This document shows, one piece after another, positions 29,395 through 29,427 of a stretch of DNA of 64,000 nt (position 1 is its first letter; every line of letters begins with the position of its first letter). The notes beneath the pieces were generated by a model. That model did not search any database and was not told the DNA's origin. It saw only the letters and a list, made by a program, of their open reading frames with translations. Source of the stretch: Escherichia coli O127:H6 str. E2348/69 (GTDB lineage: Bacteria > Pseudomonadota > Gammaproteobacteria > Enterobacterales > Enterobacteriaceae); the NCBI RefSeq assembly GCF_000026545.1, contig NC_011601.1; one strand, given 5' to 3'. The translations under genes and the position numbers were made by a program.

Positions 29395-29427
29395 AACTGA
29401 ACTTAATTTATAAAATTAAGTTCAGTT
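29395..29427. terminator. AT-rich perfect palindrome between convergent nikR and hicB-like genes (possible bidirectional terminator or cassette boundary)
   Basis: aactgaacttaattt ata aaattaagttcagtt: roughly 14-15-bp arms. Confidence 0.4.

Follow-up and report, generated by a model that had tools for sequence, protein, structure and literature searches.

A lineage-specific AT-rich palindrome between nikR and hicAB of Escherichia coli E2348/69 as a candidate transcript-end hairpin of two convergent operons

Introduction

The 3' end of nikR has been described in E. coli K-12, in which Supplementary Data 2 of PMC10687069 places the primary nikR 3' terminus at 3,619,033. According to that position, the K-12 transcript ends 1-3 nt beyond a hairpin, GGTCCTTTG...CAAAGGGCC, which starts 11 nt after the nikR stop codon. 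The interval from nikR to yhhJ is also known to be variable, as it is rhs locus 9 of the eleven rhs loci (PMC2935791). In E. coli E2348/69, nikR is annotated at 3,868,961-3,869,362 in the supplement of PMC8550237, and RIL-seq chimeras in the same source show that the hicA mRNA is expressed in this strain.

Here we describe a perfect AT-rich palindrome between nikR and a convergent hicA-hicB operon, located in a window of 64,000 nucleotides of E. coli E2348/69 (NC_011601 3,840,001-3,904,000); all positions below refer to this window unless stated otherwise. The region matches E2348/69 with 100% identity, and the published nikR coordinates fix its place in NC_011601.

Results

Structure of the palindrome and its neighbouring genes

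The palindrome has a left arm AACTGAACTTAATTT at 29395-29409, the loop ATA at 29410-29412 and a right arm AAATTAAGTTCAGTT at 29413-29427, and direct sequence comparison found the arms to be 100% complementary. The first-pass annotation had reported a perfect AT-rich palindrome between convergent nikR and a hicB-like gene; its coordinates and sequence turned out to be exact, and the open reading frames with their stops at 29362 and 29482 confirmed the location. The distance to the palindrome is 33 nt from the nikR stop (29362) and 54 nt from the hicB stop (29482, minus strand), and the hicB transcript enters the hairpin from the right. Table 1 lists the features of the locus.

Table 1 Features of the nikR-yhhJ interval in the window of E. 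coli E2348/69.
Feature	Position	Strand	Remarks
nikR	28961..29362	plus	transcript enters the hairpin from the left
nikR-hicB spacer	29363..29481		119 nt, AT-rich (GC about 0.28-0.37), Escherichia-specific
Nearly invariant spacer core	29380..29454		75 nt: tail, palindrome and the next 27 nt on the hicB side
U-rich tail of the hicBA strand	29380..29394	minus	5'-AAUAUCUUUUCUUUC-3', invariant in all sequences examined
Perfect palindrome	29395..29427	either	15-bp arms, 3-nt loop ATA
hicB-family antitoxin gene	29482..29841	minus	119 aa, PF05534, last gene of the hicA-hicB operon
hicA-family toxin gene	29838..30113	minus	91 aa, PF07927
DicF_1 chimera region in the hicA CDS	29925-29995	minus	EPEC RIL-seq, PMC8550237
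hicAB promoter and probable operator region	30114..30185	minus	up to the yhhJ stop
yhhJ	30186..31310	minus	stop codon is the right limit of the variable segment

The palindrome is a joint longest perfect hairpin of the window, the maxima of 30 locally shuffled windows being 9-12 bp, and its DNA hairpin fold of -12.8 kcal/mol corresponds to z = -7.4 to -8.2 against shuffles. It is far beyond chance expectation. The 33-mer has no second copy within the 64-kb window (expected 0), and a consensus scan called no promoter inside it. With a GC content of 0.20, the arms are the poorest in GC among the perfect hairpins of the window. The other perfect hairpins of 13-15 bp (63162-63196, 42936-42967, 48707-48739 and 19028-19058) are all more GC-rich, and the one at 48707-48739, with its A- and T-runs, has the look of a bidirectional terminator.

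On the right side of the spacer, the hicA and hicB reading frames overlap by 4 nt. Their HicA_toxin and HicB domains and the overlapping two-gene operon identify the pair as a HicAB type II toxin-antitoxin system; the PF07927 and PF05534 assignments were precomputed on orthologues, and the RefSeq gene names agree with them. The stretch from hicA to the yhhJ stop (30114-30185) is probably the operator of HicB, as predicted from its sequence. This stretch contains three TATGAC(A/T)TCA direct repeats, a 21-nt inverted repeat (30126-30146 / 30153-30173) and a promoter-like site on the minus strand. It shows 0/72 differences to the 4.5%-divergent genome E69, its TGAAGTCA/TGACTTCA motif is also found in Klebsiella, and ACN001-type genomes have a 14-nt length difference in it.

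Several further observations concern the two genes themselves. The last codons of hicB contain a short hairpin (AAACGC...GCGTTT, 29495-29513). In Klebsiella, the same hicB codons (ETLNERL; L012 2507-2527) read GAGACG...CGTCTC; the sequence differs but can still pair, which may be a by-product of the codons. The hicA gene is often damaged or called shorter, with a frameshift in TUM1586 (L002/L011) and calls of 76 aa or 83 aa elsewhere (L007, L008, L025-L028), while hicB is intact. Finally, the RIL-seq tables of PMC8550237 contain Hfq-dependent chimeras between hicA (E2348C_3724) and the prophage sRNA DicF_1 (16 fragments, p about 3e-17); therefore, this prophage sRNA may target the hicA toxin mRNA.

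Folding and terminator properties

The palindrome hairpin is present in the MFE and centroid RNA folds of both strands, and the RNA hairpin alone has a dG of -14.5 kcal/mol on either strand. Thus each of the two stop codons is shortly followed by a stable RNA hairpin, as at intrinsic terminators. The stem itself is not the GC-rich stem of such terminators, since only 3 of its 15 pairs are G-C and its base is closed by two A-U pairs. The U-run of the minus strand is interrupted, starting 6 nt past the stem, and the plus strand is without any U-tract. Because of the A-U-rich stem and the 6-nt offset of the U-run, we do not regard the element as a canonical E. coli intrinsic terminator.

We then scored the tails by a d'Aubenton-Carafa-type score. 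The minus-strand tail AAUAUCUUUUCUUUC reached 2.24, or 3.49 with the two basal pairs open, and the plus-strand tail GCAUAGAUAGAUCC reached 1.70 or 3.08; in the consensus scan, only the minus strand was terminator-like. The palindrome had been read before as a weak terminator, and this reading is reasonable; the tail scores are modest. No Rfam 15 family matched at its gathering score; the best hit was AbsR25 with 19.6 bits against a threshold of 47 (E = 1.7). The portions of the EPEC RNAtag-seq/TRS and RIL-seq supplements that were searched contain no 3'-end or RIL-seq entries at NC_011601 38693xx-38694xx.

Locus forms and distribution

We surveyed the nikR-yhhJ interval in 5,426 complete E. 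coli genomes and found at least four forms. Form S, with the 119-nt spacer and hicB-hicA, is present in 1,490 of the 5,426 genomes (27%). Form I has a 5.8-kb sugar-PTS/kinase/aldolase island and hicB-hicA without the spacer, and its aldolase gene occurs in 3,129 of the 5,426 genomes. Form R is that of K-12, where rhsB-yhhH-yhhI takes the place of both hicBA and the spacer. In form E, the empty form (AR_0017), the nikR and yhhJ stops are 8 nt apart. In the K-12 derivative XL1-Blue (L003 3316-5600), a 207-nt fragment of a hypothetical-protein CDS lies after nikR, with IS-transposase fragments and fecE beyond it; this differs from the nikR-rhsB of MG1655, and XL1-Blue represents a rearrangement at the same hot spot.

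The spacer and its palindrome occur only in form S, always on the chromosome and once per genome, and the palindrome is missing from K-12, island and empty-site genomes. In these other forms the 119-nt spacer is swapped out as a whole. The palindrome thus travels with the lineage-specific spacer and not with the hicAB module. Of 1496 E. coli genomes with any match, 1486 have the exact 33-mer and roughly 10 have imperfect palindromes; the two places reported per genome are the two strands of one site. No spacer copies were found in the plasmid and phage collections, as the two 'plasmid' matches are mislabelled chromosomes. Apart from the last 12 nt beside hicB, the spacer is homologous neither to the sugar island (ends and interior) nor to the K-12 junctions.

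Outside this survey, a search of about 100,000 species representatives (one genome per species) gave only 2 carriers of the 25-nt core. The first is an E. coli-labelled genome, E69, which is 4.5% divergent over 7.9 kb. The second is a MAG contig filed under Citrobacter that most likely comes from E. coli and was misbinned, because its alleles in the spacer and the adjoining 300 nt are those of the E. coli STEFF_1 haplotype. Overall, the palindrome has one copy per genome and is restricted to Escherichia.

Hairpins at the same place in other forms

K-12 and form I each have a hairpin of their own, of -16 to -17 kcal/mol and without a U-tract, located 11 nt after the nikR stop. On the hicB strand, form I has in addition a GC-rich hairpin with TTTTT within about 10 nt after hicB (dG -17.6, tail score 4.9). 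At least three non-homologous hairpins thus occupy the nikR-hicB slot in different E. coli lineages. The comparison with K-12, which the first-pass annotation had proposed, found no palindrome after nikR and the different hairpin there; the palindrome is therefore not a universally conserved nikR terminator. At the orthologous nikR-hicB junctions of Klebsiella (27-nt spacer) and Citrobacter freundii (a REP-like GC-rich structure only), no terminator-like hairpin was found, which indicates that a terminator is not obligatory here. The empty E. coli form is also without a hairpin.

Conservation of the spacer

We aligned 44 sequences of the spacer, representing 10 haplotypes and including lineages of 3.1% and 4.5% divergence. 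None of the 30 arm positions was variable, compared with 15 of the 86 positions in the spacer flanks (Fisher P = 0.011, or P = 0.002 with the 26 nt imposed by the search pattern excluded), where 10 haplotypes are a small sample and some of the variable sites perhaps stem from one complex event. This conservation of the arms supports a constraint.

The variable sites are clustered at 29366-29379 and 29455-29481. Within 29380-29454, the 75-nt core whose limits we set post hoc after inspecting the data, only a loop deletion and a G/A difference at 29428 were seen. The loop deletion is the sole change inside the palindrome and leaves a perfect 16+16 palindrome, and the common G29428A allele adds a 16th pair. 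On the left, the invariant block begins at 29380, the exact end of the minus-strand U-tail, and variation resumes at 29379. No compensatory substitutions were seen in the arms of the 44 sequences. As the sample contains zero arm substitutions, covariation analysis is impossible, and the arm conservation fits a function of the RNA structure and one of the DNA sequence alike.

History of the hicAB locus

In Citrobacter freundii, the arrangement nikABCDE-nikR, hicB-hicA and yhhJ-rbbA is colinear with that of the window: its rbbA-yhhJ-hicA-hicB, a spacer and nikR-nikE-nikD follow the window with 81% identity on both sides. Only the spacer (window 29359-29488) lacks homology; its C. freundii counterpart is 93 nt long, GC-rich and REP-like. 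In Klebsiella aerogenes and K. pneumoniae, a gap of 27 nt separates nikR from a convergent hicB-hicA pair (73-76% identity). From the synteny in C. freundii and the nikR-hicBA adjacency in Klebsiella, it follows that hicBA is an old resident of the locus and that the rhsB form of K-12 is derived. The sequence comparison thus indicates that K-12 lost hicBA when rhsB arrived. Despite this old syntenic position, the hicBA module (29480-30160) has a GC content of 0.36-0.50, against 0.53-0.61 in its neighbours.

Two other contexts of the genes were noticed in related genomes. Citrobacter koseri and related contigs (L020-L022) have a hicA-hicB pair of 82% identity within a P2-like prophage, where it lies between a gpA-like replication gene and a portal gene, with an endonuclease/exonuclease/phosphatase-family gene directly after it; this toxin-antitoxin family is therefore also phage-borne. 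In K. aerogenes (L012 3190-3520), about 330 nt of leader separate hicA from a magnesium-transporter gene, and this leader could be a riboswitch or leader element.

The locus forms switch from one to another at three places, namely the nikR stop (29362-29368), 29469/29470 and the yhhJ stop (30185/30186); in complete genomes these breakpoints are 27-42 nt away from the palindrome and not at it. We had also considered form E (AR_0017) as evidence of a boundary, and its empty site puts none at the palindrome. The open reading frame list, the RefSeq annotation and ARAGORN revealed no recombinase, integrase or tRNA gene near the palindrome. An att site was rejected as well, since no tRNA or att site was found. 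Taken with the synteny of hicBA in C. freundii and its adjacency to nikR in Klebsiella, these boundaries and the absence of a recombinase contradict the premise of the first-pass annotation that the toxin-antitoxin pair is an inserted cassette, and leave unsupported its suggestion that the palindrome may be the junction of this cassette or a recombination site.

Two single cases touch the palindrome itself. In strain A30 (L005 3046-3062), IS1A is inserted after window position 29408 and a deletion to yhiN removes hicBA, yhhJ, rbbA and yhiI. In the ENA metagenome contig L024 (867 nt, 1.6x coverage; 592-620), the class II aldolase gene of the sugar island lacks its last 170 nt and is joined to the spacer exactly at 29427|29428, the right edge of the palindrome. 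We rejected the latter as a real island boundary, because neither the 5,426 genomes nor 32 further metagenome loci reproduced it, and consider it a chimera or a very rare variant.

Discussion

We propose that the palindrome is a transcript-end stem-loop common to nikR and the convergent hicA-hicB operon, and give this reading a probability of roughly 0.55. That RNAs end here we infer from the RNA folds, the minus-strand tail, the conservation, the hairpins of the other locus forms and the mapped K-12 nikR 3' end. Transcription of either strand would be expected, from the folding models, to form the 15-bp hairpin. On the minus strand, the hairpin and its moderately U-rich tail could serve as a weak intrinsic terminator or as a block to 3'-exonucleases for the hicAB mRNA. 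On the plus strand, where there is no U-tract, the hairpin might define or protect the nikR 3' end, by analogy with what the K-12 hairpin seemingly does.

The palindrome might instead be a functionless relic, which we consider unlikely. The spacer would then be lineage-specific filler, and the palindrome would have come from a replication template-switch or be a remnant of lost sequence that has not yet decayed. Homologues of the spacer are indeed absent outside Escherichia, the empty E. coli form and Klebsiella manage without any hairpin, and since the carriers diverge by at most 4.5%, the invariance of the 30 arm nucleotides is only moderately significant. However, the same sequences do vary at 15/86 flank sites against 0/30 arm sites, the only changes that touch the structure keep or extend the pairing, and unrelated, independent hairpins stand at the same place in other locus forms, all of which argue against a relic.

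Some function of the 75-nt core beyond ending transcripts, be it a 3'UTR-borne regulatory element of hicAB (an sRNA, or an antisense to nikR read-through) or a second HicB-binding dyad, is a long shot in our estimation. In the first version, a small RNA freed from the hicBA mRNA, or an antisense module pairing with nikR read-through, would couple the two operons. On the minus strand, 29380-29454 does have the layout of such an RNA, with a 27-nt single-stranded stretch as seed, a terminator hairpin and a U-tail, and the hicA mRNA is associated with Hfq in EPEC according to the RIL-seq tables of PMC8550237. We nevertheless think this improbable: Rfam gave no match (best E = 1.7), the portions of those tables that were searched contain no feature in the hicB 3'UTR, the interrupted U-tail is poor for Hfq binding, and the limits of the core are post hoc. 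If the core were regulatory as an sRNA or antisense, nickel regulation would be linked to toxin-antitoxin expression, and such an element, if true, would be restricted to the quarter of E. coli with this spacer.

It is still less probable that a dimeric protein, for example HicB at a second operator or another regulator, binds the palindrome as double-stranded DNA. Such a putative site would agree with a perfect dyad that is conserved as sequence, without wobble or compensatory changes, and by direct reading 6/8 positions of its half-sites TGAACTTA and TAAGTTCA agree with TGAAGTCA/TGACTTCA, the operator motif of the promoter. But a 6/8 match is weak in AT-rich sequence, a site downstream of both operons has no obvious target of repression, and the island strains keep an identical HicB (WP_000593555.1) without the site.

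An insertion junction, with the palindrome at the border of an inserted toxin-antitoxin cassette or at the place where islands enter and leave, is hardly credible and already largely refuted. In its favour, the interval is already recorded as variable (rhs locus 9, PMC2935791), A30 carries IS1 inside the palindrome with its deletion reaching yhiN, and L024 joins its truncated aldolase gene exactly at the palindrome's edge. Against it, hicBA is syntenic across genera, all form boundaries of complete genomes lie 27-42 nt off, none of the 5,426 genomes and 32 metagenome loci has the L024 junction as a contiguous sequence, no recombinase is nearby and the palindrome is single-copy. IS1 generally favours AT-rich targets, which also counts against giving weight to the A30 insertion.

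The proposed transcript-end hairpin is in itself ordinary and of little import; more useful is that this work corrects the history of the locus. In Escherichia, Citrobacter and Klebsiella, the hicAB pair next to nikR is old and syntenic, and it was lost from K-12. The nikR-hicB slot also offers a small natural example of how one 3'-end structure is replaced by a non-homologous one at a recombination-prone locus.

Among known systems, integron attC sites and the recombination sites that flank toxin-antitoxin genes are similar in being palindromic sequences beside a toxin-antitoxin pair. Unlike attC, the palindrome is perfect, without extrahelical bases, and direct reading of its flanks shows no match to the RYYYAAC / GTTRRRY cores. 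The lack of extrahelical bases and of a recombinase, together with form boundaries that do not match, rules it out as an attC or att site. REP and BIME elements are likewise intergenic palindromes between convergent genes, whereas the present one is AT-rich, occurs once per genome and is not dispersed, unlike REP/BIME, ERIC and MITE sequences; being single-copy, it is no REP-type repeat.

With the K-12 nikR 3'-end hairpin, the palindrome shares the position relative to nikR, a similar folding energy and the lack of a U-tract. The K-12 hairpin differs in being GC-rich and non-homologous and in belonging to the rhsB-bearing form of the locus. With Rho-independent and bidirectional terminators, the palindrome shares a stable stem-loop just past two convergent stops and an A-rich run on one side that is U-rich on the other strand. 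It departs from Rho-independent terminators in its stem of 20% GC with basal A-U pairs, in the interrupted minus-strand U-run at a 6-nt offset and in the missing U-run of the plus strand. With such a low-GC stem and such poor U-runs, it is at best a weak and essentially one-directional terminator. The palindrome would thus be a new, lineage-specific instance of an intrinsic/bidirectional-terminator-like element.
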